Of a stretch of 17,560 bases of DNA, positions 2,713 to 17,560 are shown piece after piece. The position numbers were made by a program, and so were the translations under genes. The notes below the pieces were generated by a model. The model was given only the letters and a program-made list of their open reading frames with translations, was not told the origin of the DNA and made no database searches. Position 1 is the first letter of the stretch. Each line of letters begins with the position of its first letter. The stretch covers positions 1 to 17,560 of the forward strand of contig JBDRSA010000004.1 in the NCBI GenBank assembly GCA_043825275.1, given 5' to 3'. The stretch comes from Candidatus Omnitrophota bacterium (lineage in GTDB: Bacteria > Omnitrophota > Gorgyraeia > 2-01-FULL-45-10 > JBDRSA01).

Positions 2713-2729
2713 ATCTTTATCAAAACTCC

Positions 2730-3983
2730 TTACTTCCCTTCTTCCGCGCTCCTTTGTTCACAAGCAGTCGAGGCGACCCCTGCTCCGACCAGCACCCAGA
2801 AGAGTCCCGCGATCTCGCTCTGGCTCCAAAAATAGTCGACCAGTCCATGCCCCAGGAATCCTGCCAGTGAACAGAGGATCCCCAGCGTAATATATGTCTG
2901 TCCGAAACCATCTGACGCCCGTATGCCTTTATACAGCTTCCGCATAACAGCTCCGTACAACCACAAGAGCGCGAGCAGCCCGAAAAAACCGAGGTTGACC
3001 GTCGTTTCCAAAAAAATATTGTGCGTCCTGAAACGAGGAACGTTCTTCCAAAAGAACATATCCGCGCCCTGACCGCGAAAAGGGTACTCCTGAATAGATC
3101 GCAGAGCGCTCTTCGCATACTCGAGCCGGATCTTCTCCGTCGGCTCAAGGGTTCCTGTCGTGAACGAGCGAAAACCGAAAAGGTTAAATAAGAACGCTGA
3201 TACTATAATACCACAGAGCAAAAAGAAGAGGGCGATAATTTTCGGCTTTCTGTATTGTACCGCGAATATGGCCACGAAACAGGCAAAGGCGAAGAAGAGC
3301 CCTATGAGCCAGCCTTTCGTCCCCGAAAGAACCGCGCAAAAGATAAATAAAACAGTTAAAGATCCGTAGACGGCTCTCCGAAAAACGCTCGAATGAGGCC
3401 GGAAGATCCAAAAACACGCGGCGAGCGGAACAAGCGCGCCGAAAAATACGCTCATATTCGTCGGCCATCCAAACAGCCCGCAGATCCGGTGAGAACTGAC
3501 CTCGGCGCTTTCGAAGAATCGCCGGAGGCCATCTATCGCGTCATGACGAAAATACTGCGCGGCCACAAATACCGAGGCAATGCAGGCGCCGGCAAAAACA
3601 CAGGAGATCAGCCGCTCAAGCCGGCGTTCACTTGTTATAAAATTAATTATCGCGAAGGCGACGATGCCGAGGCCAAAGAACCGCGCCGTGTATTTCAACG
3701 ACCAGATCATCTTTTCTGACGGTATGACGCTTGAAAAAAGATGGATCCCTAAAAAAACGATGAAGGGATAAACGAGACCTCCCCCGTTCGGGACGTTCTC
3801 CCTGTTCGACAATATCGCGATCTCCCACAATATGATGAGAATGACGACCTCAAGCGCGAAAAAACTCTTTATCGCGGGAATCGTTAATCCGAGATTCTCC
3901 AGGGAAAAATCAAACGGAAGGAATAGAGCTATGCAGCAGCAGCAGTAAAAGACGGCGCGCCGAACGAACAAGGATAGTTTCAT
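2730..3983 (-). CDS. O-antigen ligase / O-antigen polymerase family (Wzy_C-like) polytopic membrane protein
   Basis: About 10-12 hydrophobic helices. The characteristic loop-plus-motif is RLEYAKSALRSIQEYPFRGQGADMFFW...RFRTHNIFLETTVNLGFFGLLALLWL, matching the R..W....P.G.G...F....HN..L....G..G pattern of PF04932. The track start at 3989 is TTG. I prefer the ATG two codons in (3983, MKLSLFV...). Confidence 0.8.
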   Translation of the reverse strand: MKLSLFVRRAVFYCCCCIALFLPFDFSLENLGLTIPAIKSFFALEVVILIILWEIAILSNRENVPNGGGLVYPFIVFLGIHLFSSVIPSEKMIWSLKYTARFFGLGIVAFAIINFITSERRLERLISCVFAGACIASVFVAAQYFRHDAIDGLRRFFESAEVSSHRICGLFGWPTNMSVFFGALVPLAACFWIFRPHSSVFRRAVYGSLTVLFIFCAVLSGTKGWLIGLFFAFACFVAIFAVQYRKPKIIALFFLLCGIIVSAFLFNLFGFRSFTTGTLEPTEKIRLEYAKSALRSIQEYPFRGQGADMFFWKNVPRFRTHNIFLETTVNLGFFGLLALLWLYGAVMRKLYKGIRASDGFGQTYITLGILCSLAGFLGHGLVDYFWSQSEIAGLFWVLVGAGVASTACEQRSAEEGK

Positions 3984-4124
3984 GGGCAATTATCGGGAAG
4001 AGCCGGCGCGGGAATACCGCCGATCGTTCTTCGAACCGCGGGACAATGGCCCCGTCCGCGAACATAGGGAACGGCCGGATGTCCGCCGGGAAGAAATCCG
4101 CGGTCTCGTTCTATGGCGAAGGCG

Positions 4125-5111
4125 TCACTTAACTTCTGACTGTACGCCATCAGAACTCACAAAGCAGATCCTGTTCCTTCCCGTCTCCTTCGCGTAGTAC
4201 AGGCACTCATCGGCTTTCGCGACCAACGACCTCGGGTCTTTCGAGTCATCCGGATAGGACGAGAGGCCGATGCTGATGGTAAGATGGGCGGTCGTGAGAG
4301 CTTTCTTATCGATGAATTTTGAATTCGCCACGAGCATCCGCAGGCGCTTCGCCACAATAATGGCCTTTGCCTTATCCGTCTCCGGCAGCAGCGTCACAAA
4401 CTCCTCACCGCCGTACCTGAAAACGTGGTCGGTGAACCGGACGCTTCCTGAAAGGATCTGCGCGACCTTTTTCAGGGCCCAATCACCCGCCTGGTGCCCC
4501 TGAGAATCATTAAAATTCTTGAAATGGTCGACATCGATCATCATGCACGAAAGAGGCTTCATGTATTTTGCCGCCCGCATCAGCTCATCGGGAAGCATCG
4601 CGTCAAAATGCCTCCGATTGTAGATCTCGGTCAACCCGTCAAGGATCGACAGCCGCTGATACTGCTCCTTCTCTTTCGCCTCCTTCAAGAGGAGCTGGCG
4701 CTCAACCGCCCTGCGCACGACGACCTTGATCTCCTCAATGTTGAACGGCTTTGAGATATAGTCGTACGCGCCCTCTTTCAGGACCTCCATAGCGGATTGT
4801 ATTGACGCGTAGCCGGTTATGACAATGACGCAGACATCCGCCTTCGCGCTTCTGAATTTTTTTGTGACCTCTACGCCGTCAATACCCGGCATTCTCATGT
4901 CCGTTATCACAATGCTGAAATCGCTGTTGTTGACGAGCCTCACCGCCTCTTCGCCGCTTGACGCCGTACACACCTGGTAGCCGGATTCGGTCAAGACATC
5001 CTTCAGCATGCTGCGCATAATGTCTTCATCGTCTACCACCAGAATGCTAACCGCGGCCATCGCGTTCGCGACGGCGTCTCTCGATCTCTTAACGTTCTCC
5101 CGCTCAGCCAT
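4125..5111 (-). CDS. Response regulator with GGDEF output (REC-GGDEF diguanylate cyclase, PleD/WspR-like)
   Basis: REC domain: ILVVDDEDIMRSML...FSIVITDMRMPGIDG...VIVITGYAS, giving the acidic pocket, phospho-acceptor Asp and conserved Lys region. GGDEF domain: LDGLTEIYNRRHFD...IDVDHFKNFNDSQGHQAGDWALK...RFTDHVFRYGGEEFVTLL...ADECLYYAKETGRNR. The active site GGEEF is intact and an RxxD I-site (RFTD) lies 5 residues upstream. SD AGAGGAG precedes the ATG. The gene starts 23 nt after the kinase gene. Confidence 0.95.
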   Translation of the reverse strand: MAERENVKRSRDAVANAMAAVSILVVDDEDIMRSMLKDVLTESGYQVCTASSGEEAVRLVNNSDFSIVITDMRMPGIDGVEVTKKFRSAKADVCVIVITGYASIQSAMEVLKEGAYDYISKPFNIEEIKVVVRRAVERQLLLKEAKEKEQYQRLSILDGLTEIYNRRHFDAMLPDELMRAAKYMKPLSCMMIDVDHFKNFNDSQGHQAGDWALKKVAQILSGSVRFTDHVFRYGGEEFVTLLPETDKAKAIIVAKRLRMLVANSKFIDKKALTTAHLTISIGLSSYPDDSKDPRSLVAKADECLYYAKETGRNRICFVSSDGVQSEVK

Positions 5112-5134
5112 GATTTTTTGCCGCTCCTCTTTTT

Positions 5135-6898
5135 TTATTTTTTAGGCTCTTTGGATTTCACTATCGGGAAGCTCAGTATAAAAGTGGTTCCTTTCCCCTC
5201 TTCACTCTCCGCGGCAACCGTCCCTCGGTGGGCCTGAACGATCGTATGGGTTATTGAAAGCCCGAGGCCTGTTCCGGATCTTCCTACCTTGCTCGTAAAA
5301 AAAGGATCGAAGATATTTGCCAGGTTCTCCTTCGAGATCCCGCTGCCGGAATCCGAAACACGGACCTCCACATACTCAAGCGGAGGCCTGTATCTCGTAT
5401 CGCTCTTGTTCAGAGCGGTCACCTTGATCACGCCGTTCTCGCCCATAGCGTCCTGAGCGTTCTGAATAAGATTCGTGAACACCTGCTGCAGCTGATTCGC
5501 GTTCCCGTTGATCTTCCTGAGGCCTTCCGGAGAGAACGCGGCCGATACTTTCATGTTCTTCTGTGAGAGCTGGAACTCCATCATGCTGACGGTATTCTCA
5601 ATAACGTCCTGGATATTTATCTCTTCCATCTCTTCGGACGATTTCCGCGAAAAATTCAGCAGGTTCGATATGATCCACTGACAGCGCTTCGATTCCTTCT
5701 CAACCATCTCAAGGTATCTGATCGACGTATCAATGACATCCTGTGAGGGGGTAGAGGATTTAAGCCTGGATAATATCAGCTGCACGTACCCGAGGATCCC
5801 GCCGATAGGATTGTTCAGCTCGTGGGCGACGCCGGCGCTGAGCTGGCCGAGCGAGGCCATTTTCGAGGATTGGACGACCTGGTTATACGTCTGCCGCAGT
5901 TCATCCATCTGATCCTTGGCCTTCCCACGGTCGACCTGTTTATATTCGATCAACCGGTCCTCTTTCACCCTAAGCTCATCGGTTACCCGGAGGTGCGCGG
6001 CCTTCAAGGCGATCAGGCCGGTTATACTCTGAATGAGGCGGATCGCCCCTTTCAACAGCATCTCATCTCTTTTCGCGGCCGCCCCGATGACGCCGAAGAA
6101 TGCCCCCCGGTACTCAATGGGCACCAGAATAACCCCCCGGGACCCCTGCTGAAAAAATATCTTTTCTACTTCTTCAAATTTCTTCCCCCCCAAAAGACTC
6201 TTCTTAAAAACGGCTTCCTTCAATCGTATCTCGCGTATCGACGTCCCCTCTTCGTCAAGAGGGATATCTCTTCTTTCGGCCAGGCCTTCGGGGAAGAGCG
6301 GGTAAATGGTCGCCTTCTTCTTATCGCCGCTTATCAGTAGAAGAGCCGCGGAGTCTATATATTGGATCGATCGAAGGCCGTTCCTGGCTGCCTCGAGCAG
6401 ATCGCTCGTCGTTACCCCTGACGAGAGGATCTCCTGGAATTTTTGAAGGAATGAATTGCTTTGGCTGAAACTGCCGAGCGAAGATATCATCTGAGAACAG
6501 GCATGATCGATGTAGGCGATCTCGCCTTTCTCTTCTTCTATATGGCCTTCGCCGCAATACCCTTTTACTTTCTTTACCAGAACGGTCATCGGAGACAGGA
6601 TCCTGTCAAACAACGGAAAAGTAATGAGACAGACCGCCCCCAGGCTTAAAACCGCTACGAGCGCGGAAGAAAATATTACGGTGGTAAACTCCTTGCTCGC
6701 GAAAATACTGACAAGCAGCCCCGCCTCAATAAACAGAACGACCAGAACCACTCCAATAACAAAGATTTTTATGATTTTATCTTTCAAGAACGGCCATCTT
6801 TCTTTTTTCTTGAGGCTTTTAATGAAATATAGCACCACTCTTTGTGCTTTGTCAAGTTTAAATTCCTCTGTCGAAATTCCTCTGTCGGTTATTGACAC
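5135..6898 (-). CDS. Membrane-bound sensor histidine kinase (2 TM, GAF-like domain, HisKA, HATPase_c)
   Basis: Two adjacent TM helices (IIKIFVIGVVLVVLFIEAGLLVSIF / VIFSSALVAVLSLGAVCLITFPLF) with almost no periplasmic loop. GAF-like core: ...IDSAALLLISGD...GVILVPIEYRGAFFGVIGAAAKR. H-box: SLGQLSAGVAHELNNPIGGILGYVQL. N-box: QVFTNLIQNAQDAM. G-boxes: VSDSGSGI and GTGLGLSI. The annotated start is GTG at 6898. The true start is uncertain because of the 14-bp tandem repeat at 6860-6887 (see findings). Confidence 0.9.
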   Translation of the reverse strand: MSITDRGISTEEFKLDKAQRVVLYFIKSLKKKERWPFLKDKIIKIFVIGVVLVVLFIEAGLLVSIFASKEFTTVIFSSALVAVLSLGAVCLITFPLFDRILSPMTVLVKKVKGYCGEGHIEEEKGEIAYIDHACSQMISSLGSFSQSNSFLQKFQEILSSGVTTSDLLEAARNGLRSIQYIDSAALLLISGDKKKATIYPLFPEGLAERRDIPLDEEGTSIREIRLKEAVFKKSLLGGKKFEEVEKIFFQQGSRGVILVPIEYRGAFFGVIGAAAKRDEMLLKGAIRLIQSITGLIALKAAHLRVTDELRVKEDRLIEYKQVDRGKAKDQMDELRQTYNQVVQSSKMASLGQLSAGVAHELNNPIGGILGYVQLILSRLKSSTPSQDVIDTSIRYLEMVEKESKRCQWIISNLLNFSRKSSEEMEEINIQDVIENTVSMMEFQLSQKNMKVSAAFSPEGLRKINGNANQLQQVFTNLIQNAQDAMGENGVIKVTALNKSDTRYRPPLEYVEVRVSDSGSGISKENLANIFDPFFTSKVGRSGTGLGLSITHTIVQAHRGTVAAESEEGKGTTFILSFPIVKSKEPKK

Positions 6899-6968
6899 TA
6901 AGGCGATTTAGTGCTATATTTAAATGTAAATTAGGCATTAATATTGTCGATGGAAAGATTTGGCTCTT
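6899..6968. promoter_or_regulatory. AT-rich divergent intergenic region between the kinase operon and the LysM/motor operon; presumed to hold promoters for both
   Basis: It is the only AT-rich gap between two divergent operons: ctaaggcgatttagtgctatatttaaatgtaaattaggcattaatattgtcgatggaaagatttggctctt. It contains several TATA-like hexamers (TATATT, TAATAT) and a TAAA-N15-GTCGAT motif. No confident sigma70 -35/-10 pair with 17-nt spacing could be assigned. Confidence 0.4.
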
Positions 6969-7673
6969 ATGCATACTTCACATAGTACCATCCGGCGGAG
7001 CGGGAAGATATTATTGACAACTCTCTTCGCTCTTCTCGCGCTCTTTTTTTCCGCTTCCGAATCCTCCGCCCGGGATCCGATGCGGTCAGGTTCCCGAGAG
7101 GCCGAGGCCTACGACGATGGCATCTTCCGGGAAAACAGAGGCTACCTTGTCAGTAACGAGAATATCCCCGAGGAGCGCTCAAAATCAACCCTCTTCAGAC
7201 GCGGAGCGTTCAATAGGACTGAGACGTCTCGTCAGCGAAAGAAGAGAGCTCCGATAACAAAAATATCGTACGGGCAAAAAAAATCCCGGGAGATCTCTAA
7301 ACCGTCTCAACAGGAGTCTTCGTACATTCGTACTCTTGAAGACGCTCTCCTGCAGGAACGAGAGCGCTCGCTGCGCCAAACGAAAGAGATCGAGACGCTC
7401 AGGAGTAAACTGGAACGGGCTCTCAGGCAGCTGTCGCTGGCGACCCAGAAGATAATGGACCTCAAACAGGAGCGCCCCGCGTCTTCAAAGAGAATTTCAC
7501 AGACCTACCAGGTCAAAGCGGGCGATTCTCTCTGGTCGATCGCCGCGATGAAAGAGATCTACGGCAATCCGAAGAAGTGGCTTCTTCTCTATCACGCCAA
7601 CAGGGATCAGATCTATGATCCGAACCTTATCTTCCCGAACATGGTACTCTTGATCCCGCGTCTCAACGATTAA
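6969..7673 (+). CDS. Exported coiled-coil protein with a C-terminal LysM peptidoglycan-binding domain
   Basis: Signal peptide: KILLTTLFALLALFFSASESSA. Heptad-like charged segment: RTLEDALLQERERSLRQTKEIETLRSKLERALRQLSLATQKIMDLKQE. C-terminal LysM: YQVKAGDSLWSIAAMKEIYGNPKKWLLLYHANRDQIYDPNLIFPNMVLLIPR. The track start at 6960 is TTG. I prefer ATG 6969, which has GGAAAG 11 nt upstream. The stop lies 10 nt before the next gene. Confidence 0.85.
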   Translation: MHTSHSTIRRSGKILLTTLFALLALFFSASESSARDPMRSGSREAEAYDDGIFRENRGYLVSNENIPEERSKSTLFRRGAFNRTETSRQRKKRAPITKISYGQKKSREISKPSQQESSYIRTLEDALLQERERSLRQTKEIETLRSKLERALRQLSLATQKIMDLKQERPASSKRISQTYQVKAGDSLWSIAAMKEIYGNPKKWLLLYHANRDQIYDPNLIFPNMVLLIPRLND

Positions 7674-7683
7674 GGAAATATCT

Positions 7684-9726
7684 GTGGGGACCGACAACTA
7701 CACTACGGTTGGACGCTTGAAAACAACGCGCAAACTGTTTTACAGTACTCTGCCGCTGAAGGCGGCCTTCTCTGTATTGGTATGTTCGCTGGCGATCCTG
7801 CCGCCTGCCGCGGCTGCTCAGAGACGGGCCGACGAAGCGATATTGGAAAGTGACATGGCGACCCGCCTCGAATCGATGGTAGAAAAAGTCGTCGGAAAGG
7901 AGCGCTCGATCGTAAAGGTAAAGGTCACCCTTTCGCGCCCCCAGGCTGAAGCTCCTCTCGGCAGCTTAAGAGGGAAGCTGGGCGACATGCCCGGTGTCGC
8001 GTTCTCGAAGGCGGAGCCCAAAAAAGAAGAGACGGTAAAACTCTCGGTCGGCCCCACGATCGAAAAGATCGCGATCACGATCTTTCTCGACAACAAGATC
8101 GCCTCCGATAAGATCGACAGCATAAAAGAATCCATTCCCCGGTGGATGGATCTCGATTTCGAACGCGGCGATACGCTGAAGATCGAGCTGAAGCCGTGGA
8201 AAGAGCTTCCGCCGGAAGATATCGCGATAAAACAGCTGTCGTTCCTGAAAGGAAATCTTTTGGCGATCGTCGCCATCGCCAGTATCGTCATCCTGGTCTT
8301 CGTCCTTATGGCCGTACTTGCCGTACCGGCCAGGAAAATGATCAAACAGCGGTTGAAGATGCCGTCCGACGAGAAAAAGCTCAAGGATCTCGCCAAGGTG
8401 ATGGGTGACCTGAAAAACGTTATCATTAAATCGACCGCCGGCGCGGCGAAGAACGTCGATACCCTTCTTGAGGATATCAAAGGGATCCTCGCGAGAGCCC
8501 CCTCGAGAAGCGACGGCCTGCTTGAAGAAATACGGGATGTGCTTGAAAATATCGCCACAAAATCGATGAAGGGGGGCGAGGGAGGCTCCGGCGGGGCCGG
8601 CGGCTCGGCCGGATCCGCCGCCGGTTTACAGGCGCCCGAGTTCCTCCAGGCACTCAGGGATACGCTCGCGCCGATGGGCGGCGACGGAGGGTTATCCCCC
8701 GAGGCGCTCCAGGTGCTCCAGAGCATCGAGGAGCACATCAAAAGACAGGTTGACGGCGTTGCCGCGGGCGACATTCTTGACGAGCCGTTCAAATATCTCA
8801 ACTCTATCTCGACCGGTGAGATCTCCCTGTATATCGACGGCGAGGAGCCGAGGATCGCCGCCATAATACTGGGACATATCGACCCGAACAAAGCGGCGGA
8901 AGTCGTAGCTGAGCTATCCGACGAAAGAAAGATAGAGGTTTCGGTCGCCATGGCAACCCTTGTCGAGACCGATAAAGTCGCCGCCGAAATAAAGGACTTT
9001 ATCCGCCGCAAAATGCCCGAAGTCAAGCTGAGAAGCGACTTTCAGCCTATTACGGGAAGCAAGGCGCTCGCGGAGCTTTTGAGCTCTTCAACGCTTGATA
9101 TTACGAATTATGTCCTCGACAATCTCCAGAAGAGTAACCCCTCGATCGCGGAAGCGGTAAAGAAGGAGATGTTCCTCTTTGAGGATATCGCGGGCCTGCA
9201 GAATGAAGGCGTCGCGGAGCTGTTAAAAAGCACCGACCGGCATCGTCTTAGTCTTGCCCTTCTGAAGGCGTCGGACGCGGTTAAGACCAAATTTTTTAAC
9301 AACATGACCGAGCGCGCCGTCGCGATGGTCAAGGAGGAGATGAGCGCCCTGCAGCCCGTATCCGATGAGGGTTTGAAAGACGAAATTCTGTTTTTTGAGG
9401 ATATCGTAAATCTCGGCCAGAAGAGATTTCAGCAGATCTTTTCGAATATCGACCGAAATATGATAAAGCTCGCGCTCAAAGGGTCGTCCGAAGAAGTCCG
9501 TACTAGGGTCTTCGCGGTCATGACCGAGCGCGGAGCGGCAATGCTGCGGGAAGATATCGAGGTTATGCCGAACATCGCGCGGGAACGCACGCTCGAGGCG
9601 CAAAAAGAGATACTGGATTACGTGCGTAAACTGGAGATGGAACCTATTGTCGCTCAACAGGAGATCATCGCCAAGGTCAGAGAGCTCGAACGCGCCGGAA
9701 GGCTCTCGCTCGGATCGCGGTCCTGA
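7684..9726 (+). CDS. 680-aa fusion protein: signal/TM, FliF/YscJ-like periplasmic module, TM, long flexible linker, FliG-like middle domain, and two tandem FliG C-terminal units
   Basis: GTG start with AAGGAAA 5 nt upstream. aa 25-45 hydrophobic (LKAAFSVLVCSLAILPPAAAA). aa 46-190 are periplasmic with ring-building-motif-like strings (ATRLESMVEKVVGKERSIVKVKVTL ... IEKIAITIFLDNKIASDKIDSIKESIPRWMDLDFERGDTLKIEL). TM at aa 191-214. Gly-rich tether: GGEGGSGGAGGSAGSAAG. FliG ARM_M-like: GEEPRIAAIILGHIDPNKAAEVVAELSDERKIEVSVAMATL. FliG_C unit 1: MFLFEDIAGL...LSLALLKASDAVKTKFFNNMTERAVAMVKEEM. Unit 2: ILFFEDIVNL...IKLALKGSSEEVRTRVFAVMTERGAAMLREDIEVMPNIARERTLEAQKEILDYVRKLE. Confidence 0.8.
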   Translation: MGTDNYTTVGRLKTTRKLFYSTLPLKAAFSVLVCSLAILPPAAAAQRRADEAILESDMATRLESMVEKVVGKERSIVKVKVTLSRPQAEAPLGSLRGKLGDMPGVAFSKAEPKKEETVKLSVGPTIEKIAITIFLDNKIASDKIDSIKESIPRWMDLDFERGDTLKIELKPWKELPPEDIAIKQLSFLKGNLLAIVAIASIVILVFVLMAVLAVPARKMIKQRLKMPSDEKKLKDLAKVMGDLKNVIIKSTAGAAKNVDTLLEDIKGILARAPSRSDGLLEEIRDVLENIATKSMKGGEGGSGGAGGSAGSAAGLQAPEFLQALRDTLAPMGGDGGLSPEALQVLQSIEEHIKRQVDGVAAGDILDEPFKYLNSISTGEISLYIDGEEPRIAAIILGHIDPNKAAEVVAELSDERKIEVSVAMATLVETDKVAAEIKDFIRRKMPEVKLRSDFQPITGSKALAELLSSSTLDITNYVLDNLQKSNPSIAEAVKKEMFLFEDIAGLQNEGVAELLKSTDRHRLSLALLKASDAVKTKFFNNMTERAVAMVKEEMSALQPVSDEGLKDEILFFEDIVNLGQKRFQQIFSNIDRNMIKLALKGSSEEVRTRVFAVMTERGAAMLREDIEVMPNIARERTLEAQKEILDYVRKLEMEPIVAQQEIIAKVRELERAGRLSLGSRS

Positions 9727-9785
9727 CCGCTCTCGATTCATTGATCTCAGTCATCAAAAGAAACCGGTGGAAGAAAGGATCAAGC

Positions 9786-9980
9786 ATGATCATCGTTACA
9801 AAGTTTGACGGCAAGGAACTGGTAGTGAACGCCGACCTTGTAAAGTTCGTCGAAGCGAAACCTGACACTATCATGACGCTCACCACCGGTGAAAGGATCA
9901 TCGTAAAAGAACCCCGCGATGAAGTTATCAGCCGGATCATTAAGTATAAGCAGTTGGTACATCAACCCCCCGTCCAATAG
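9786..9980 (+). CDS. flbD: FlbD (small flagellar stator-associated protein, PF06289-type)
   Basis: MIIVTKFDGKELVVNADLVKFVEAKPDTIMTLTTGERIIVKEPRDEVISRIIKYKQLV matches the FlbD consensus pattern (..lTrlnGkef.lNadlIe.ie..PDT.itLt.G.k..VkEs.eEV...i..yk). The track ORF begins at 9741, but ATG 9786 has the SD GGAAGAAAGGA and gives the canonical 64-aa size. Confidence 0.85.
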   Translation: MIIVTKFDGKELVVNADLVKFVEAKPDTIMTLTTGERIIVKEPRDEVISRIIKYKQLVHQPPVQ

Positions 9981-9995
9981 AACAGAGAGGCGACC

Positions 9996-10751
9996 ATGGC
10001 GATAACAACTATAACCGGGCTTCTCCTGGCGGCGTTCTTTCTTCTTTTCGGTATCGCGACACGCGGCGGTATGTCCCGGATCATGGTCTTCGTCGATCCG
10101 GGATCTCTTATGCTGGTTGTCGGCGCCAGTATTTCGGCGCTCATCACGAACTATACGTTTAAAGAGATATGGCTGGCCATGAAAGCTATCCGTTTCGCCT
10201 TTCTGCCGAAACCCCCGATGCCTGAAGCGGTTATCGATCTGATCGTGCGCATGGCCATCAAAGCGCGCAAAGAAGGGTTCATTTCACTGCGGGAAGAGTC
10301 ATCCGGCGAAAAATTTCACCTGGTCGACCTGGGTGTCGGCCTCATCGCCGACGGGACCGATCCCGAGGTGACCCGGGAGATCCTCGACGCCGCGAGCTTC
10401 ACCGAGGGCGGCATGCTCGCTTCAAACGAGCGTGTCTGGAGGGACCTGTCGGTTTATACTCCCATGTTCGGTATGGTCGGAACGCTGATCGGCCTTATCC
10501 TGATGCTGCGGGGTTTGTCCGACCCCGCGACCATCGGCCCGGCAATGGCCATGGCGCTCATAACAACGCTCTACGGCATCGTTATCGCGGGTGTGCTTTG
10601 TCTTCCGATCGCCGGAAAGATCAAAAATTATAACGATCGGGTAGCGGTCCTGAGAACGCTTATGATCGAGGGCCTCATCTCCATCCAGGCGGGTGACAAC
10701 TCCCAGATCGTTGAGGCGCGCCTCAAGGCTCATATCGCCAAAGAATCCTAA
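9996..10751 (+). CDS. motA: MotA/PomA-type flagellar stator channel subunit (251 aa, 4 TM)
   Basis: The four-TM layout has a large cytoplasmic loop between TM2 and TM3. That loop contains AIKARKEGFISLREE, the ARxxGxxxLE-type charged loop of MotA/PomA. TM3 is YTPMFGMVGTLIGLILML and TM4 is GPAMAMALITTLYGIVIAGVLCLPIAGKI, so both conserved prolines are present. The gene sits 15 nt after flbD and 7 nt before motB. Confidence 0.9.
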   Translation: MAITTITGLLLAAFFLLFGIATRGGMSRIMVFVDPGSLMLVVGASISALITNYTFKEIWLAMKAIRFAFLPKPPMPEAVIDLIVRMAIKARKEGFISLREESSGEKFHLVDLGVGLIADGTDPEVTREILDAASFTEGGMLASNERVWRDLSVYTPMFGMVGTLIGLILMLRGLSDPATIGPAMAMALITTLYGIVIAGVLCLPIAGKIKNYNDRVAVLRTLMIEGLISIQAGDNSQIVEARLKAHIAKES

Positions 10752-10758
10752 TAAAAGA

Positions 10759-11553
10759 ATGCCCGTTCACAGCCTCTATAAAAAAAAGAAAGCTTTCCCT
10801 TCGGTCTCCGGAGAAAGCGAGCTTGAAGACAGCTGGCCGCCTACCTGGTCCGTCAGCTTTGCCGACCTGACGACGCTGCTAATGTCGGGGTTCATCCTCT
10901 GGTACGCTCTTACCGCGATGAAGATCCCGCCGGAACTTCTCGCGATCAAAGAGATCGATCAGGTTATTCCCGCCGATATCAAGATCATGGAAAACTTCGA
11001 ACAGGCGGGCGCCGATCAATCAAGGATCATGCTCAAGATCAAGGCCCTCACCCCCAAACAGCGCAGGCTTGTCAGAGAGATGAAGGCCCTGAGGGAGCTC
11101 AAAGAGACGATCGAGCGCCAGATAACCCAGGCCGGCCTTGACGACAAAGTAGACGTTCGGGTAGAGATCGACGCGGTGCTCATAACGCCGCGTGAGCCTT
11201 TTCTCTTCGGGGAGGGGGACGCCCGGCTCAAACAGAGCTCGTTCGCGCTGCTTGACACAATTATCGAAACGATACGGTCACGGTCATACTACCGGATACG
11301 CGTCGAGGGCCATACCGACAGCGCGCCGATCGGCCCTTTCCGCAAGATCCTGTTCCCCACGAATTGGGAGCTTTCCTACAAACGGGCGATAACGGTAGCT
11401 CAATATCTTATTGCCGGAAATATATCGCCCGCGGCCATCGGGGTGACCGGATACAGCGATACAAAACCGAAGGTTGTGGGCGATGACCCGGAAAGCAGAG
11501 AGAAGAACAGAAGGGTCGACATTTATATTTATCTCAAGAAGGTCGAAAGGTAG
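10759..11553 (+). CDS. motB: MotB-type stator subunit, paralogue 1 (TM with conserved Asp, coiled-coil linker, OmpA-like peptidoglycan-binding domain)
   Basis: The start is trimmed to ATG 10759, because track start 10693 would overlap motA by 59 nt. N-terminus: SWPPTWSVSFADLTTLLMSGFILWYALTAM, with the channel Asp in FADL. C-terminus: YRIRVEGHTDSAPIG...FPTNWELSYKRAITVAQYL...GVTGYSDTKPKV...NRRVDIYI (OmpA_C-like). Confidence 0.9.
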   Translation: MPVHSLYKKKKAFPSVSGESELEDSWPPTWSVSFADLTTLLMSGFILWYALTAMKIPPELLAIKEIDQVIPADIKIMENFEQAGADQSRIMLKIKALTPKQRRLVREMKALRELKETIERQITQAGLDDKVDVRVEIDAVLITPREPFLFGEGDARLKQSSFALLDTIIETIRSRSYYRIRVEGHTDSAPIGPFRKILFPTNWELSYKRAITVAQYLIAGNISPAAIGVTGYSDTKPKVVGDDPESREKNRRVDIYIYLKKVER

Positions 11554-11565
11554 CGTCCTCAAGCC

Positions 11566-12318
11566 ATGATCGAATCAAGAATTCAACGGCGCGATCAAGC
11601 GACATCAACGCTTCAGGAGGTTTGGCCGCCGAAGTGGTTCTTTTCGTATTCGGACCTGTCGGTGCTCCTGATGACCTTCTTTATCATTCTCGCCACGATG
11701 CTTTCCCTGAAGATCCCGCTCTACGTGTTTGCCGACGCGAGATTAAAACCGCTCCTGGATGAACGGATGGTCGTCTTTGAAGAGATCAGGCGGCTCACGG
11801 AACTCGAGAAGATGATGATGGATGAATTTCAATCAATGCGGCCCGATCAGGTCAAGCGCCTCATCGCGCTCGAGAAGATGAATGAGTTGAAAAAAAGTAT
11901 CGATAAGTACATCAAGAAGATGCAGCTGGAAAATTTTATCAAGATCGAAGCCGGAAAGTGGAAGCTCCGGCTGGTGCCCTTGTCTCCCTTGCTGTTCGGC
12001 CGCGGCGACGCCGTTCTGCGTCAGGAAGCGAAAGATTTTCTCGATCAGATAGCGGAATTCGCCGCAATGTACCCGTCGCGCCTTTCGATCGAGGGGCACA
12101 CGGACGACACCCCTATCAACACCCGTCAATTCTCCTCAAACTGGGAACTTTCCGCGGCCCGCGCGAACAGCATTATGCGCTATCTGGCCACCGAACACAA
12201 GATCCCCTCTGATAAGATCGACGCGGTCGGATACGGGGAATACCGGCCGCTCGTCCCCAACGACTCGGATACAAACCGCGCCTCCAACCGCCGGGTCGTT
12301 ATCGAACTGCTTATTTGA
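11566..12318 (+). CDS. motB: MotB-type stator subunit, paralogue 2
   Basis: N-terminus: VWPPKWFFSYSDLSVLLMTFFIILATM, with the Asp retained. C-terminus: RLSIEGHTDDTPINTRQFSSNWELSAARANSIMRYL...AVGYGEYRPLVPN...NRRVVIELL. It has the same architecture as paralogue 1, including an alignable coiled-coil linker, and starts 12 nt after it. Confidence 0.9.
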   Translation: MIESRIQRRDQATSTLQEVWPPKWFFSYSDLSVLLMTFFIILATMLSLKIPLYVFADARLKPLLDERMVVFEEIRRLTELEKMMMDEFQSMRPDQVKRLIALEKMNELKKSIDKYIKKMQLENFIKIEAGKWKLRLVPLSPLLFGRGDAVLRQEAKDFLDQIAEFAAMYPSRLSIEGHTDDTPINTRQFSSNWELSAARANSIMRYLATEHKIPSDKIDAVGYGEYRPLVPNDSDTNRASNRRVVIELLI

Positions 12319-12387
12319 ACAGTCGTAGAGCTTTTACATGCCACGACTGTTCATCCTGAGCGAAGCGAACGATCTCATTCCATAACT

Positions 12388-12410
12388 TCCTCTCCCCGGA
12401 GGGGAGAGGA
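12388..12410. repeat. GC-rich perfect hairpin (10-bp stem, 3-nt loop) in the convergent intergenic region; possibly a bidirectional terminator or a REP-like element
   Basis: tcctctcccc-gga-ggggagagga. It is flanked by tcatcctgagcgaagcgaacgatctc upstream and ttgaggtgagggg downstream. There is no U-tract on either strand, so it is not a canonical intrinsic terminator. Confidence 0.4.
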
Positions 12411-12467
12411 TTGAGGTGAGGGGTACCCTTGAATGCTTGTACATTGCTACCGGCTTCGGTATCCCGG

Positions 12468-12761
12468 TCAAAACTTCATCTGGGATCTCACCCTCGTAGG
12501 ACTGCCGTCTTCTGACGAGTGATACTTTATCTGAGGATTCATCCAATACCTAAGATAGCGGGTAATAGTCTTTCCTCCGACAATATACCCGCAAAGAGCC
12601 GCCATTATCACAATAAAAACCTTGAGCAGTATCGTGGCTCTAAATCGGCTCTTCCTTGCTATCTTCTCTTTTATCTTTATTTTAATACGGTTTTGCGAAC
12701 GGCCAAACGTATTCCCGCCCGGAGCTTTTTCCGTATTCTCATCATGTCTGAAATTATCCAT
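12468..12761 (-). CDS. Possible small single-pass membrane protein (97 aa), hypothetical
   Basis: Track ORF 12468..12872 trimmed to the internal ATG at 12761. The product is MDNFRHDENTEK...RIKIKIKEKIARKSRFRATILLKVFIVIMAALCGYIVGGKTITRYL..., i.e. a basic N-terminus followed by one TM. It is co-directional with, and 76 nt downstream of, the three-gene cluster. There is no recognisable family and the region is AT-richer than the neighbouring genes, so it may be non-coding. Confidence 0.3.
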   Translation of the reverse strand: MDNFRHDENTEKAPGGNTFGRSQNRIKIKIKEKIARKSRFRATILLKVFIVIMAALCGYIVGGKTITRYLRYWMNPQIKYHSSEDGSPTRVRSQMKF

Positions 12762-12837
12762 GTACTTTTCCGTTATCTTTTGCCATGAACGATCTTTGTT
12801 CCCGTCAATTATCCGGCTTCCGCTGTATCTCCGGCCT

Positions 12838-14316
12838 CTACTCAACGGTAAAAGTACCGACCACCCAGTCACCGTATTTTTCGTAGTTTACATACGGCTG
12901 TTTGAACGTATCGCTTGGATAAGTCGGCTGGTCGATTTGATAAACCCCGTCCTTTCCTCTGTAGTATCTTACATAGCTTGCTCCCTCCTGAGTCTTTTGT
13001 TCAATAAAAAGACCTGCTTCAATATCATAAATGCCGGGGGGCGTATCATCAGGTATGTACACTCGCTTCGGCCCCTGGGTAATAATCTCACCAACCTTCC
13101 ATTCCGTCGCTTGAGGAATCAGTGAAGAATCGGCATTAATATAGCCGGCCTTATCGTTCTGTCGATAAATATGCATGAATAACGCGTAATTTTTCTTAAA
13201 CTTTCTTGATATTGAAAAAGATAACTCTATATCGATCGTTCCACCGGGTCGTACACTGTTTTGAGAAAGTTTTGTCCCTTCGAAAGTAACAAAAGGGCCC
13301 GTCTCATTGCCCAGATTGAAAGAGACAAGCCAAACATCATCGAGATATATTGTCGCCTGAGCGCCGCCGCGATAAAAATTAAAATCGTCTATATCGCCAA
13401 GGTCGATCTTCTCGCCGACAGCCGATAAATTAATAACATACGGCTTATCTTTCTCCGTTGTACCGGGTATTCCAACCGTAAATCTTCGTCCCGTTCTGTC
13501 TTTGATCTGCAAGGTAAGGGGAGTATTTGAATACGTGTGGCCATCCTTCTCCGGTCCATAGACGTAAAAACGCAATTCATCATAGAGTAACCAATCGTGG
13601 TATTTCGGATTACTATATCTAAAAAAATTGTTGAGTCGAACCGTAGGCATGCCGCCTTCGTTGAATGTTATTTTGGCCGCCTGCTTCCCTTGAGCAACAT
13701 TCTCTTTTTCCTGCTCAATAACGGCGCCGGATAGCTCCCATTTCCTTACATCGACCAGATCTTCAAAATCACTTATTACAAGATCTTCGATCTTCTTTTC
13801 CTCATTCTCATCTGCCGGCTCGACCACACGCAACGTCCCGACAATAAAATCTTTTATATCCGCGTTGGTATACGGCTCCCTGATATAGATCGGTCCCGCA
13901 GATGTCTGTTTCGTCGAATAGAGCCCCATCCTTACACCATACTCTCCCGCCGGTATGTCAGAAGGAATAAAAACATTGACCGGACCTACGGAAACCGCGT
14001 CACCAACTACCCACATCGTTGTAGGCGTCGCGGGCGAAAAATCATTATTGATAACGATCGCGTGCGTCTTGAGATCTACAATATGCAGATAAAACCCGTA
14101 ATCTTCCCAAATATTCTTGGTGATCGAAAAATCAGCGTTCAAGAAGAAGATCTCCCCTTTTTGGACCTTATCGGGAATATCGAGCGTCCCTAAAGTTATG
14201 ATCGCCTTTCCTTCCCGGACAATAGATTTCGCTTGAACGGTAAAAGAAAAGATGGTGCCAATTAAAAGAATAGGTATAGATACCCGCCGAATATGATAAA
14301 ACAGCATCTTTTTCAT
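12838..14316 (-). CDS. Secreted modular protein (492 aa): module A, CBM-like module B, module A
   Basis: ATG start with AGGAGA 9 nt upstream. Signal peptide: MKKMLFYHIRRVSIPILLIGTIFSFTVQA. N-terminal module A: ...FYLHIVD...INNDFSPATPTTMWVVGDAVSVGPVNVFIPSDIPAGEYGVRMGLY...VGTLRVVE. Central module B: ISDFEDLVDVRKWELSGAVIEQ...DWLLYDELRFYVY...LQIKDRTGRRF...IYLDDVWLV. C-terminal module A: ...LFMHIYR...INADSSLIPQATEWKVGEIITQGPKRVYIPDDTPPGIYDIEAGLF...VGTFTVE. Confidence 0.85.
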   Translation of the reverse strand: MKKMLFYHIRRVSIPILLIGTIFSFTVQAKSIVREGKAIITLGTLDIPDKVQKGEIFFLNADFSITKNIWEDYGFYLHIVDLKTHAIVINNDFSPATPTTMWVVGDAVSVGPVNVFIPSDIPAGEYGVRMGLYSTKQTSAGPIYIREPYTNADIKDFIVGTLRVVEPADENEEKKIEDLVISDFEDLVDVRKWELSGAVIEQEKENVAQGKQAAKITFNEGGMPTVRLNNFFRYSNPKYHDWLLYDELRFYVYGPEKDGHTYSNTPLTLQIKDRTGRRFTVGIPGTTEKDKPYVINLSAVGEKIDLGDIDDFNFYRGGAQATIYLDDVWLVSFNLGNETGPFVTFEGTKLSQNSVRPGGTIDIELSFSISRKFKKNYALFMHIYRQNDKAGYINADSSLIPQATEWKVGEIITQGPKRVYIPDDTPPGIYDIEAGLFIEQKTQEGASYVRYYRGKDGVYQIDQPTYPSDTFKQPYVNYEKYGDWVVGTFTVE

Positions 14317-14407
14317 TGTTATCTTTCTCCTTTTTTAAAATACTAAAAATACATATATCAGACAGAGGGTCTATCTTTTTGTCAGCCAGTTTTCGACGCA
14401 AATGGCT

Positions 14408-15499
14408 TTACTTCACTACTTCAATATATCCGACTATATGATCTTTAAAAGCTTGGCTTGCGTACCGCAAGCGGGGATAGCCGGTACGAAAATCAAAGGC
14501 TCCACTGTTGAGCGCGCCTCTTGAATACGATCCTCTTGATCGGGGATTAAATAGCCCGATCTGCACCGCATAGGCGCCCGGTTGAAAATCTTTCGGAATA
14601 AAGATCCTTTCCGGGCCAATTTCATATATGCCGCTTTCGGCCCACTGAGAAGTAGGGACTAATGGATCTCTGTCCGCGTTGATAAACCATCGCCGTTTTG
14701 ATGACTTTTTTTTCAATTCATTTGATTTTGAAATATGAATAAACGCTTTATACTTTTTGTCCAGCGCTTTTAAGGCCACCATACTGCAGGAAAGTAAAAT
14801 TTCCGTGCCGCGTCGAACAGTATCCGGAGCGCGCAACGAAACAAAGTCTACCATAGGATCTTCCAGGATATCTCTCTTTGCAAGATCTTCCCTATCAAGC
14901 CTTACATTGTCCAAATAAAACTCGCGATCTTCGTTTTGGGGACCGGTAAAGAGTTTAAGATAGACGATATTCGTTAGATCAACTGTATCAGCAATATCTT
15001 TGAGATCGATCCGAATATTATTTTTCCCACTTTGCATCTTTATTTTCTGCTGCGCATATCGGCCGGCTTTATCCTTTATTTTTATGTCAAGGAGTACAGG
15101 GGCATCCTGCGGGTTCCATAGCTCAAACCGTAAAGATTTAAAACGAGACCAATCTTTTTCCCCGCGAGGACCTATATTAGTGTCTTCAAGCCCTACTCCT
15201 GGAGTAGCGCTCCCTCCATGTTCTTTACTGTATAGAGTTACATGGGCGGAGTGTTTTCCAGATGACGCGTACCGGGAAGAAAGCTCAACAAAGCTTCCGT
15301 CAAGATCCCACGCCCAAAAATCCTTCGACCCCTCAAAATCACTAAGAACTTTTTCGTGAGGCGTATAAAAATAATTGACTGCCGGTTTTGTATAATTAAT
15401 AAACGTGTTAATAACTCCCGTTCTTTTTATGGAAAACCCGATCAATAAGAGCCATCCGAGGATAACACTAAATATAACTAAAAAATAATTTTTTTTCAA
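14408..15499 (-). CDS. Membrane-anchored/exported modular protein (363 aa): CBM-like module B, then module A
   Basis: TTG start; there is no in-frame ATG before the N-terminal TM (YFLVIFSVILGWLLLIGFSI). Module B: LSDFEGSKDFWAWDLDGSFVELSSRYASSGKHSAHVTL...DWSRFKSLRFELWNP...IKIKDKAGRY...FYLDNVRL. Module A: ...AFIHISK...INADRDPLVPTSQWAESGIYEIGPERIFIPKDFQPGAYAVQIGLF...VGYIEVVK. Confidence 0.85.
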   Translation of the reverse strand: MKKNYFLVIFSVILGWLLLIGFSIKRTGVINTFINYTKPAVNYFYTPHEKVLSDFEGSKDFWAWDLDGSFVELSSRYASSGKHSAHVTLYSKEHGGSATPGVGLEDTNIGPRGEKDWSRFKSLRFELWNPQDAPVLLDIKIKDKAGRYAQQKIKMQSGKNNIRIDLKDIADTVDLTNIVYLKLFTGPQNEDREFYLDNVRLDREDLAKRDILEDPMVDFVSLRAPDTVRRGTEILLSCSMVALKALDKKYKAFIHISKSNELKKKSSKRRWFINADRDPLVPTSQWAESGIYEIGPERIFIPKDFQPGAYAVQIGLFNPRSRGSYSRGALNSGAFDFRTGYPRLRYASQAFKDHIVGYIEVVK

Positions 15500-15532
15500 A
15501 ATATAGCCTGCCGTTCGAATGCCGAGAAATAT

Positions 15533-17560
15533 TCACTTCGCCAATTCCTCTATCAACCTTCCGATCCTCTCTCTTTCTTCAAAAACCCGCTTATTGTCTC
15601 TCGTATAGTAGATTGAGGTTTTGACAATAGCGTTATTTACGCGCAACGCGTCTTCGGCCTCAGATAAACCAGCATGATAATCGCTCGAAAAGCCGTTCTT
15701 TTTTATTAAGTTTACCGTATCGTTTAACAGATAAAAGTACTCGTAATCCTCGAGGCCATCCCGAAGGACCTCGAGCCGGATAGAGCCGACCGGGTTCTCT
15801 CCTTCCGGATCCGGATAATACAACGACCCGTTTCCGTTCTGCTCTGAAAAGGTCATAGCGCTCTTCCACGGATCGGTTTTGCTCCAATAGTTTACACACC
15901 AATAGAGCAACCCTTTGGCGCCGTACTTCCAGCATATCCATGGGATGATCCGGTGCTCGATCGCGGGAACATCCAGATTGAGGTTCGGGCATGGCCTCGT
16001 CGTTCCGGCAACATACATCCAGATATCCTTGCCGGATCTTTGAAATTCGGAAACGGCGGGCTGGACCAATTCATCAACTCTTACACACCATATATCAACA
16101 TCGGGATATCCTTTCCGCGGCGCCATAGTAACAAGATTCTTTATTCCCGGATTACCCTCATGAATAAGCCGGGTAAAATCTTTGACCCGATGAAGGGTTT
16201 CATCGAATATATACGCGTAGGAGATGTTGAGCCAGCCTTTTTCTTCCAGGTGCTTTCCGTATTCTCCAAAGACGCCTACCACAGCGTTTTGATCGGTATA
16301 TCCGTACCACTTATCCGTCCACTCTCCCCGGTATCCCCAGGGCCATTCCTGGGCAATGCCGAAACAGGCTTGGCCGTTTTCAAGATAGAACGCCGCCTCT
16401 TTGTCGAATTTGTCAAACGCCAGATGATATTTCCCATCCTCTTCACCTAAGAACTTCGGATTGCCTACATTGTGTATCGGGCTGATGCGGTGCTTGAGCA
16501 TATCAAGATAATAGCTCTCAAGCAGCCTTTGGACCCGAAGTTTCCAAAATACGCCATCTTCATGCTGTTTCCGCGGATGACTTGATTTGATATGATGGGC
16601 ATAAAAGTCAAAAGCGGTTTTCAGGTTCGCTCTTTTGGGAATAGAGAAACCCCAAACGTGAAGCGTTACATCTACGCTTTTTGCCTTTTTCCCCGATGGA
16701 TGTATGATCACCGTACTCTTATATTTCCCGGGTAGAGTTTCCTTTGGGACATACACCGTGGCCCAGACCGGTTGAACAGTCTCTTTTGGGACATCAAAAG
16801 GCTCCTTGAGCGGGATCAGAGGATCGGGCCATAATCCGACTTTAACGGTATTGTAGTATGGTTTTTCTGTTTTGACATAGCCCACTTTATATAACGTTAC
16901 ATTCTCTTTTCCGATCCCGCGGCCATTCTTCTCAAAAAAATCATCTTCCAACAAAACCTCTACGTTTTGCAGATCATCCTCTCCGGGAACAACCACGATC
17001 TGAAAGCTCTCGTATTCTCCCCTTGCCGCGTAAATAGTTACGCTATCTCGATCGCTCGTATAGTCCAAATAAGCTCTCTCCTGAAATATCTTCTTGAGGG
17101 AATCAGCGGCCATTACTCCATAACCGTATTCATCTGCAAATATAACCGGTTCAGGAGACCTCTTTTTTATCGAGATCGCGCCGACCGCCCAATCATGAAT
17201 ATCCTGATTGCTGTAAGGTAACTTTTTATAGTATGCCCCGGTCGCTGTTCTCGTTTGGGAGGAAAGCCCCATAGTCACCCTATATTCTCCCTCGGGAAGA
17301 TCAAGCGGAACGTATATATAGAACGGTCCCAGATCTATCCTTTTATTGGGCTCCCAAAGCTTCTGTGGTCCCAAAGCATGGATATCAGCGTTTACATACG
17401 CCCCCGGCCAGGTTCCTTCAAGGTGTAAAAAAAGAAAATGTTCTTTCGGAAGTCGTTCCGTGATCTCCAAGCCGCATGAAATCGCAACCATATCCCCCGT
17501 AAACAGCTCAGCGGGAGATATATCAATGTTCAAAAGGTTCACCTGTTCTTCGCCATATGA
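15533..17560 (-). CDS. DUF4091 / GH123-like glycoside hydrolase with an N-terminal module A; the 5' end probably lies beyond the right window edge
   Basis: The track ORF starts at GTG 17542, but the frame stays open to the window end (...SYGEEQ-VNLLNIDISP) and no signal peptide is present, so the true start is likely outside. N-terminal module A: ...LFLHLEG...VNADIHALGPQKLWEPNKRIDLGPFYIYVPLDLPEGEYRVTMGL...VGAISIKK. Then ARGEYESFQIVVVPG, YAYIFDETLH (an adjacent Asp-Glu pair), and the DUF4091 signature LLYWCVNYWSKTDPW...GNGSLYYPDPEGENPVGSIRLEVLRDGLEDYEYFYLL. Confidence 0.85.
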   Translation of the reverse strand, partial: SYGEEQVNLLNIDISPAELFTGDMVAISCGLEITERLPKEHFLFLHLEGTWPGAYVNADIHALGPQKLWEPNKRIDLGPFYIYVPLDLPEGEYRVTMGLSSQTRTATGAYYKKLPYSNQDIHDWAVGAISIKKRSPEPVIFADEYGYGVMAADSLKKIFQERAYLDYTSDRDSVTIYAARGEYESFQIVVVPGEDDLQNVEVLLEDDFFEKNGRGIGKENVTLYKVGYVKTEKPYYNTVKVGLWPDPLIPLKEPFDVPKETVQPVWATVYVPKETLPGKYKSTVIIHPSGKKAKSVDVTLHVWGFSIPKRANLKTAFDFYAHHIKSSHPRKQHEDGVFWKLRVQRLLESYYLDMLKHRISPIHNVGNPKFLGEEDGKYHLAFDKFDKEAAFYLENGQACFGIAQEWPWGYRGEWTDKWYGYTDQNAVVGVFGEYGKHLEEKGWLNISYAYIFDETLHRVKDFTRLIHEGNPGIKNLVTMAPRKGYPDVDIWCVRVDELVQPAVSEFQRSGKDIWMYVAGTTRPCPNLNLDVPAIEHRIIPWICWKYGAKGLLYWCVNYWSKTDPWKSAMTFSEQNGNGSLYYPDPEGENPVGSIRLEVLRDGLEDYEYFYLLNDTVNLIKKNGFSSDYHAGLSEAEDALRVNNAIVKTSIYYTRDNKRVFEERERIGRLIEELAK

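Follow-up and report, generated by a model that had tools for sequence, protein, structure and literature searches.

What would a flagellar-type stator and a FliG-related protein do in a cluster of polysaccharide genes? The question is raised by a 17,560-nt stretch of Candidatus Omnitrophota DNA (GCA_043825275.1, contig JBDRSA010000004.1, positions 1-17,560; hereafter the window), in which six plus-strand genes at 6969-12318 encode, in order, a LysM protein, a 680-residue FliF-FliG fusion, FlbD, MotA and two MotB paralogues (MotB1 and MotB2), each label being backed by Pfam. The block was delimited from the listing of open reading frames (ORFs) and from independent gene calls on an identical 4.6-kb public contig, and its intergenic gaps are 10, 59, 15, 7 and 12 nt. 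Pfam found no flagellar family in any other gene of the window. We consider it fairly probable that the six genes form an ion-driven rotor-stator module that descends from flagellar parts, works outside a flagellum and has to do with the biology of envelope polymers.

The central component is the product of gene 2 (7684-9726, +), a putative self-anchored rotor ring subunit in which an RBM3-type domain of FliF and a transmembrane (TM) helix precede a FliG middle domain and two FliG C-terminal units. Pfam matched FliG_M (E 3e-13) and, over two stretches, FliG_C (E 3e-43). Residues 367-567 align to the middle and C-terminal domains of T. maritima FliG (PDB 1lkv, E 1e-25), and residues 570-652 align anew to a complete FliG C-terminal domain (PDB 1qc7, E 1.3e-13). 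From these alignments the ARM_M domain was placed at aa 367-447 (8782-9024, +), ARM_C with an MFLFEDI hinge and a first torque-helix unit at aa 458-565 (9055-9378, +; FliG_C positions 1-82 of 108), and a second C-terminal six-helix unit with an ILFFEDI hinge at aa 568-652 (9385-9639, +). The first torque unit lacks its last helix and the second is complete. In a 12-sequence family alignment R616, E623 and D624 of the second unit, the equivalents of E. coli R281, D288 and D289, are invariant. The first unit of the window protein keeps the charged residues K536, R and E551-E; in the family alignment E551 and K536 of the preceding helix are invariant, and the R281 equivalent varies (R or K, with T in two members). 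The FliM-binding EHPQR motif is altered throughout the fusion family, EHPQ being replaced by EEPR or EEPK and the distal arginine by an invariant alanine. FliG_N was not matched significantly, the sole Pfam match (22 bits, cut-off 25) overlapping ARM_M, and the TIGR00207 fliG model gave 170.7 bits against a cut-off of 226.7. A 402-aa antisense ORF inside the fusion gene (7818-9026, -) was dismissed because homologues and domains are known for the plus-strand frame only; it is probably a by-product of codon bias in the coding strand.

A hydrophobic segment (aa 21-46) opens the N-terminal part of the fusion. After it comes a periplasmic RBM3/S-ring-like domain of about 130 residues (~aa 47-175; 7822-8208, +) that AlphaFold2 modelled as alpha-beta-beta-alpha-beta, with a short insertion at the site of the FliF beta-collar and a conserved RGDTLKI at its end. 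A Foldseek search of the PDB with this domain returned FliF RBM3/collar (S-ring) structures as all of its top 18 matches (probability ~1.0, E 3e-4 to 2e-3); PrgK and EscJ of the injectisome came next. Searched against the PDB, the fusion family profile gave FliF as its only match, a weak one (E 0.3) aligned on the RGD(T)L motif. By hhalign the same profile also matched P0055, a distant relative, in its N-terminal segment (97.5% probability); that segment of P0055 exceeds the Pfam YscJ_FliF_C threshold, and the N-terminus of the window fusion itself falls below it. The FliF assignment leans on the fold search and on transitive profile homology, because Pfam was negative and the profile search of the PDB marginal. 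RBM1 and RBM2 (YscJ_FliF, PF01514), which in FliF surround the export gate, were not matched in the fusion by Pfam, and the periplasmic stretch comprises only ~130 residues.

Like TM2 of FliF, the TM helix of the fusion comes after the periplasmic domain (~aa 190-221; 8251-8346, +; hydropathy peak 3.24 over aa 184-221, model helix 192-220). A cytoplasmic linker (aa 222-366; 8347-8781, +) occupies the place of the FliF C-terminus and FliG_N; the family alignment shows two conserved helices in it (LEDIK.IL and D.LL.EIRD.L), and it contains a Gly-rich disordered stretch (pLDDT, the model confidence, <50 over aa 290-364). We conclude that the 680-aa protein is a genuine FliF-FliG fusion. Its parts belong to known families, and it fails two features that define FliG (FliG_N and EHPQR) and one that defines FliF (RBM1/RBM2).

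FliF-FliG fusion motors are functional in Salmonella. One of the matches to the window fusion was PDB 8z4d, and the engineered or spontaneous fusions of Salmonella and Vibrio, of which 8z4d is one, resemble it in having a covalent linkage that is compatible with ring assembly. The same holds for P0049 (787 aa), a natural full-length fusion with YscJ_FliF, YscJ_FliF_C, FliG_M and FliG_C. These engineered or natural full-length fusions, however, keep RBM1-3 and the FliG N, M and C domains in complete flagella, whereas the window fusion has only RBM3 with one M and two C units. The exhaustive profile search described below also recovered a FliM-DUF4116-FliG_M-FliG_C fusion (P0026, 996 aa), and an ornithine-cyclodeaminase-like domain joined to a complete FliG was seen in P0029 (560 aa), which may be a gene-call artefact.

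The stator genes follow. Gene 4 (9996-10751, +) encodes a MotA/PomA-type A subunit of 251 aa with four TM helices (Pfam MotA_ExbB, E 6e-23) that matches Vibrio PomA (8brd) across its full length with an E-value of 2e-39 and keeps ARKEGF (PomA R88/K89) and both channel prolines. The NCBIfam PomA/MotP models gave it 180-184 bits against equivalog cut-offs of 341-394. MotB1 (gene 5, 10759-11553, +; 264 aa) and MotB2 (gene 6, 11566-12318, +; 250 aa) were both matched by Pfam OmpA and MotB_plug. Each has the channel Asp in its TM helix (SFADLTTLLM and SYSDLSVLLM, respectively) and an OmpA-like peptidoglycan-binding domain (E 2e-17 and 5e-19). The MotBs fall into two orthologous groups, with 147-397 bits within groups and 113-158 between them, which diverged anciently, and both groups are represented at 15 loci. 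The conservation of two MotB paralogues beside a single MotA suggests a heterodimeric axle, MotB1:MotB2. To our knowledge the sole precedent for one A subunit with two MotB-like proteins is AglR with AglQ and AglS. That arrangement, the stoichiometry of which is unknown, parallels MotB1 and MotB2 (PMC9389320). Zorya or another defence system was considered and rejected: PADLOC found no ZorA for MotA, its ZorB matches to the MotBs (29-65 bits) were weaker than those of flagellar MotB models, and beyond this similarity it matched none of the remaining proteins of the block.

The initial annotation of this DNA, made from the letters and an ORF list, had proposed six plus-strand genes and their gap sizes, which are exact to the base. 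It had further called the 680-aa protein FliG-related, with its own membrane/periplasmic anchor, and the stator flagellar-type. The two PDB alignments support the FliG relationship, the Foldseek and hhalign results identify the anchor as FliF-type, and the match to PomA with the channel Asp in both MotBs bears out the stator.

Two genes of the block remain. Gene 3 (9786-9980, +) encodes a 64-aa protein of the FlbD/SwrD family (Pfam FlbD, E 2e-23) that is kept at all loci with 47-77% identity. FlbD precedes motA in spirochaete and Firmicute operons. Bacillus cells that lose SwrD generate less torque; the protein assembles into hexameric rings, and MotA has been predicted, though not validated, as its partner (PMC13232269). 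Gene 1 (6969-7673, +) encodes a secreted coiled-coil protein with a C-terminal LysM domain (Pfam LysM, E 1.6e-6) in which the motif WLLLYHANRDQI is invariant among six aligned orthologues. We placed its start at ATG 6969, which yields a signal peptide with a hydrophobic N-terminus at aa 11-32; gene callers chose 7080, and 6960 (TTG) is another alternative. An orthologue lies immediately 5' of the fusion gene at 18 of the 25 loci described below, that is, at every locus whose contig reaches upstream.

How widespread is this block? When 5.8 billion proteins were searched by word index, only 14 relatives of the fusion came up. A profile search run exhaustively over 1.84 billion cluster representatives gave ~14 of them above 250 bits and then a sharp fall to canonical FliG below 200. 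By sequence the fusion family is rare and distinct. Context look-ups and two collection scans yielded 25 distinct loci, the genome-collection scan, which used single-sequence patterns, contributing 3, and gene content was assigned with hidden Markov models built from the six window proteins. The order LysM-fusion-FlbD-MotA-MotB1-MotB2 holds at the 25 loci, which are from Omnitrophota and Auribacterota, as far as each contig reaches; the same order at 25 independent loci puts the block far beyond chance. Identity to the window proteins runs from 59-77% (L005) down to 33-50% (L006, L007 and L009), fusion identity falls to ~31% among loci (31-70% overall), and the reading frames are intact throughout. 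More distant fusions (P0018, P0021 and P0023) have a single FliG_C. At one exceptional locus of this more distant, single-FliG_C kind (L013, 821-5167) both motB genes are inverted and converge on motA from the other strand, so the block can split into two transcription units and yet stay adjacent.

The surroundings of these loci argue for a role outside the flagellum. Almost all 25, including all those on long contigs, lie within Wzx/Wzy or exosortase-type polysaccharide loci, with flanking genes for a priming polyprenyl glycosyl-phosphotransferase, exosortase EpsH, EpsI, GT4 glycosyltransferases, PgaB-like deacetylases, Wzy_C proteins, a Wzx flippase, a Wzz-like protein, Metallophos proteins, radical-SAM enzymes and GH123. 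Genes of the exosortase type stand near the block in the distant clade; the window has Wzy_C, Metallophos and GH123 and no exosortase within its 17.5 kb. At L007 the NCBIfam cut-offs for exosortase, EpsI and EPS_sugtrans are all exceeded (TIGR02602, 131 bits against 105.6; TIGR02914, 81 against 42.8; TIGR03025, 412 against 295.6). No flagellar gene was seen in the flanks inspected, ~10 kb on each side, eight of which were seen only as a census of the top 25 families. The source of L007 is Ca. Erginobacter occultus (Auribacterota), a 95%-complete metagenome-assembled genome (MAG), and according to its authors no Ace Lake Auribacterota MAG, this one included, encodes flagella (PMC9324843).

These observations bear on the simplest alternative, an ordinary mot operon serving a flagellum encoded elsewhere, with the 680-aa protein as an accessory FliG paralogue (a brake, a clutch or an extra ring). 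The MotA is typically PomA/MotP-like, FlbD is otherwise known only from flagellar operons, both phyla have flagellated members, and flagellar genes of the window organism were sought in the window. We nevertheless judge this explanation quite unlikely. No long locus has a flagellar gene within ~10 kb on either side, the block is carried by the 95%-complete MAG reported to be flagella-free, and the neighbourhood is consistently one of polysaccharide biosynthesis. Moreover, the fusion has its own ring-building periplasmic domain and TM helix and has neither FliG_N nor the FliM-binding motif, so it cannot attach to FliF or FliM as a canonical FliG does. The initial annotation had left it to be checked whether this synteny is confined to flagellated organisms. 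The synteny proved not to be tied to flagellar genes: it lies in polysaccharide loci and occurs in the carrier reported to be flagella-free. The exopolysaccharide (EPS) link, which the same annotation had called pure inference, is now a conserved-neighbourhood result that extends over 31-70% identity.

A second alternative arises from the region upstream of the block. Divergent from it are genes for a histidine kinase (5135-6898, -) and a response-regulator-GGDEF diguanylate cyclase (4125-5111, -), both assigned by Pfam. This pair is found in the window, L005 and L008; it is conserved only in the window subclade and is absent from the distant clade. A promoter-like site of the sigma-70 type (TTGACA-17-TATATT, agreeing with the consensus at 11 of 12 positions and having an extended -10 TG) lies 5' of the LysM gene at 6892-6920 (+), and a mirror-image site (TTGACA/TATATT with TG, 6855-6826, -) points at the kinase gene. 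The two divergent, near-perfect sites sit back to back at 6826-6920 in an AT-richer intergenic region, which suggests coordinated control of the motor operon and the kinase/diguanylate cyclase operon. Over the region promoter-like sites numbered 13, where shuffles predicted 4.0. The kinase's annotated start, a GTG at 6898, sits upstream of the gene's own promoter, and the true start is therefore probably 35-45 codons further in.

Given this arrangement the stator-rotor pair might be a signalling device, in which ion flux or load is read out and controls polysaccharide production via cyclic di-GMP (c-di-GMP). Parallels exist: EPS expression in Vibrio cholerae is controlled by the Na+ flagellar motor, and stators are coupled to c-di-GMP in Pseudomonas. 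The divergence of the pair from the same intergenic region (window, L005 and L008) and the location of the block in EPS loci fit such a device. On balance we hold it to be unlikely. The distant clade is without the two-component/GGDEF pair and yet keeps all six genes, and Pfam found no PilZ or other c-di-GMP-binding domain in the six proteins. The strict retention of the torque-helix charges, of the Asp in both MotBs and of the ring-building domain indicates that force generation itself is under selection, which argues against a purely sensory role.

The third alternative is a static inner-membrane scaffold, MotA and MotB passing force derived from the proton-motive force to the periplasmic LysM protein without rotation in the manner of TolQR or ExbBD, or else a decaying flagellar relic. 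Some non-flagellated bacteria keep leftover flagellar genes. Other motors of the MotA/ExbB family also work on periplasmic partners and not on rings (PMC9389320). We regard this alternative as very unlikely. The window MotA is of the flagellar type, with an enlarged cytoplasmic torque domain, and not of the ExbB/TolQ type (classification of PMC12505986), both MotBs have peptidoglycan-anchoring OmpA domains, as stators do, and the torque-helix residues of FliG are invariant. At 25 loci the frames are intact, across 31-70% identity, and the functional residues invariant, which excludes decay.

Several points weigh against a non-flagellar module. The flagellar scan covered the window and the locus flanks, so that a flagellar regulon elsewhere in the window MAG is possible, and flagellated members exist among the Omnitrophota and Auribacterota (PMC8542988, PMC9324843). 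As judged from sequence, MotA and FlbD resemble ordinary flagellar versions. In 6 of 6 MotAs compared the equivalent of PomA E96 (E. coli MotA E98) is an Arg, and the next residue (E97) is acidic in only 5 of the 6; with an Arg at this position the stator-rotor charge pairing is not fully canonical and may differ from that of known motors. The AlphaFold2 models of the fusion are of moderate confidence only (overall pLDDT 61-63, core 70-83), and the Foldseek root-mean-square deviations are large because the collar loop was modelled poorly. No Wza-type outer-membrane polysaccharide exporter was seen beside the block. Ring formation, rotation, the MotB heterodimer and the polysaccharide link are all inferred.

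The other features of the window were as follows. On the left side the order Metallophos gene, 60-aa ORF, 476-aa membrane protein, Wzy_C, response-regulator-GGDEF and histidine kinase is the same in L005. The Metallophos phosphoesterase gene (2-865, -; 66% identical to its L005 counterpart) is truncated at the left edge and is missing from the ORF list because it runs off the end of the window; the conserved 60-aa ORF (962-1141, -) lies next to it. On the right side are two paralogous secreted proteins without a Pfam family, of 492 aa (12838-14316, -) and 363 aa (14408-15499, -), and a GH123 glycoside hydrolase (15533-17542, -) that adjoins the latter. The two paralogues have a repeated domain in common with the N-terminal part of the GH123 protein. 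As a pair they accompany the motor block at 12 loci, on either side of it, and they may be accessory components or polymer-processing proteins. Together these are the flanks described in the initial annotation: the two-component pair, Wzy_C, GH123 and the two secreted proteins are present, and there is no other flagellar gene in the window.

Just 3' of motB2 lies a small convergent ORF (window ~12468-12872, -; L005 14910-15191; L006 14786-15070; L007 14668-14970; L008 15973-16287). In its product a single hydrophobic helix comes after a basic stretch rich in R and K (RIKIKVKER); with identities of 13-35% homology is uncertain. Terminator-like matches numbered 10 over the region against 7.8 from shuffles, those inside the block being few and weak. 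The terminator scan found none with a strong stem and T-run inside the block and none 3' of motB2. A Rfam scan of the window gave no regulatory RNA or riboswitch at gathering thresholds.

If the six genes do encode a rotor-stator module of non-flagellar function, it could work as follows. By homology the fusion would insert in the inner membrane, where its RBM3-like domain would oligomerise into an S-ring-like ring. With FliG_M, ARM_C and the torque units joined to it covalently, such a ring would carry a built-in FliG belt on its cytoplasmic face, with no need for the joint between the FliF C-terminus and FliG_N or for FliM and FliN. The stator would be a PomA-like MotA pentamer around a probable MotB1:MotB2 heterodimer (MotA5:MotB1:MotB2), anchored to peptidoglycan by the two OmpA-like domains. 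With H+ or Na+ flowing via the conserved Asp, it would push on the conserved R...E-D torque helices of the fusion. FlbD may assist the stator as SwrD does in Bacillus. The LysM/coiled-coil protein is a likely periplasmic partner that would couple the ring to an N-acetylglucosamine-type glycan, either peptidoglycan or the polymer itself. In the window subclade the module would be under a c-di-GMP two-component pair. The output would most likely be mechanical work on the export, assembly or organisation of the exopolysaccharide that the Wzx/Wzy or exosortase-type locus around the block produces. We infer polysaccharide export or assembly, as the precise output, only from the conserved neighbourhood, and it is much less certain than the non-flagellar nature of the module and its tie to envelope polymers.

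How does such a device compare with known motors? With the flagellar motor core (FliF, FliG and MotAB or PomAB) it shares an RBM3-type domain followed by a TM helix, ARM_M, ARM_C, the MFxF hinge and the charged torque helix of FliG, a PomA-like A subunit, MotBs with a channel Asp and an OmpA-like anchor, and a FlbD gene upstream of motA. It differs from that core in that FliF and FliG are one polypeptide without RBM1/RBM2, FliG_N and EHPQR, its torque unit occurs twice, two MotB paralogues go with one MotA, and the genes lie in a polysaccharide locus with no C-ring, export gate, rod, hook, filament, FliL or chemotaxis genes nearby. Cross-talk between EPS and motors is known from the EpsE clutch of Bacillus subtilis and from the PilZ brakes YcgR and MotI at the FliG-MotA interface. 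There it is a real flagellar motor that is acted upon, by a protein of the EPS locus or by a c-di-GMP receptor, whereas the EPS locus of the window itself encodes a rotor and a stator, with no evident flagellum.

The non-flagellar systems GldLM/PorLM, AglRQS, TolQR, ExbBD and ZorAB likewise put an ion-driven motor of the MotA/ExbB family to envelope work, and the surface-polymer link of the window module resembles the Agl-Nfs and GldLM-SprB systems. GldLM/PorLM serve gliding and type IX secretion, and AglRQS gliding and the spore-coat polysaccharide. Unlike the window module, however, these 5:2 motors have no FliG or FliF partner, and their A subunits are of the small-cytoplasmic-domain type, the window MotA being flagellar-type. 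The initial annotation had stated that known non-flagellar 5:2 motors are without a FliG rotor, a statement upheld by the literature (PMC9389320).

The nearest comparison is a sister family of the fusion with the architecture RBM3(YscJ_FliF_C)-TM-FliG_M-FliG_C-TPR, represented by 49 matches, every named source of which is in the Elusimicrobiota (P0054, P0055 and P0090). Its members resemble the window fusion in the short FliF domain, TM helix, FliG_M and FliG_C, and at L011 and L012 (10001-17672) genes for FlbD, MotA, an OmpA/MotB-like protein and MotB come after the TPR-type fusion and share its strand. They differ in having a single FliG_C with a C-terminal TPR, and in having as neighbours giant ORFs, CHU_C and PorP_SprF/LysM proteins in place of EPS genes. 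An ORF of 14,454 aa precedes the fusion at L011 and L012. At L014 and L015 (10001-11953) the fusion lies next to an ORF of 18,879 aa, CHU_C proteins and a PorP_SprF/LysM protein. TPR/UPF0164 proteins are also found near these fusions, and CHU_C is the type-B C-terminal domain of the secretion system known as type IX (T9SS). This arrangement recalls the logic of GldLM-SprB gliding, yet from flagellar-type parts, and suggests a broader tie of FliF-FliG fusions to surface polymers or adhesins.

Taken further, and only tentatively, RBM3-FliG rings with flagellar-type MotA/MotB may constitute an unrecognised class of stand-alone envelope rotary motors, in three or more phyla that are largely without flagella (Omnitrophota, Auribacterota and Elusimicrobiota among them), that would pass rotation on to the periplasm for the export, spooling or movement of surface polymers. 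The polymer would be exopolysaccharide in the window family and giant adhesin-like proteins with T9SS-type C-terminal domains in the Elusimicrobiota. In a more radical form of this proposal, the module may resemble a pre-flagellar rotor-stator core and not a reduced flagellum. Our literature search found no description of the window fusion family or of the Elusimicrobiota sister family, the searchable literature held no paper combining FliG, MotA and exosortase, and three large Omnitrophota genome papers are without any mention of flagella, MotA or FliG.

In the prevailing view FliG and flagellar-type stators are exclusive to the flagellum. Recent surveys regard flagellar-type stators as a class specialised for flagellar rotation, and no non-flagellar FliG partner is listed in them (PMC12505986, PMC9389320). 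If the six genes are what we propose, the torque core would function, or persist under selection, without an export apparatus, a C-ring or axial structures. The block would provide a natural minimal rotor-stator pair, with one rotor protein, one MotA and two MotBs, for structural and single-molecule work, and would inform scenarios of the origin or reduction of the flagellar motor. For the Omnitrophota, Auribacterota and Elusimicrobiota it would prompt the question of a role for rotary work in the biology of exopolysaccharides or giant adhesins.

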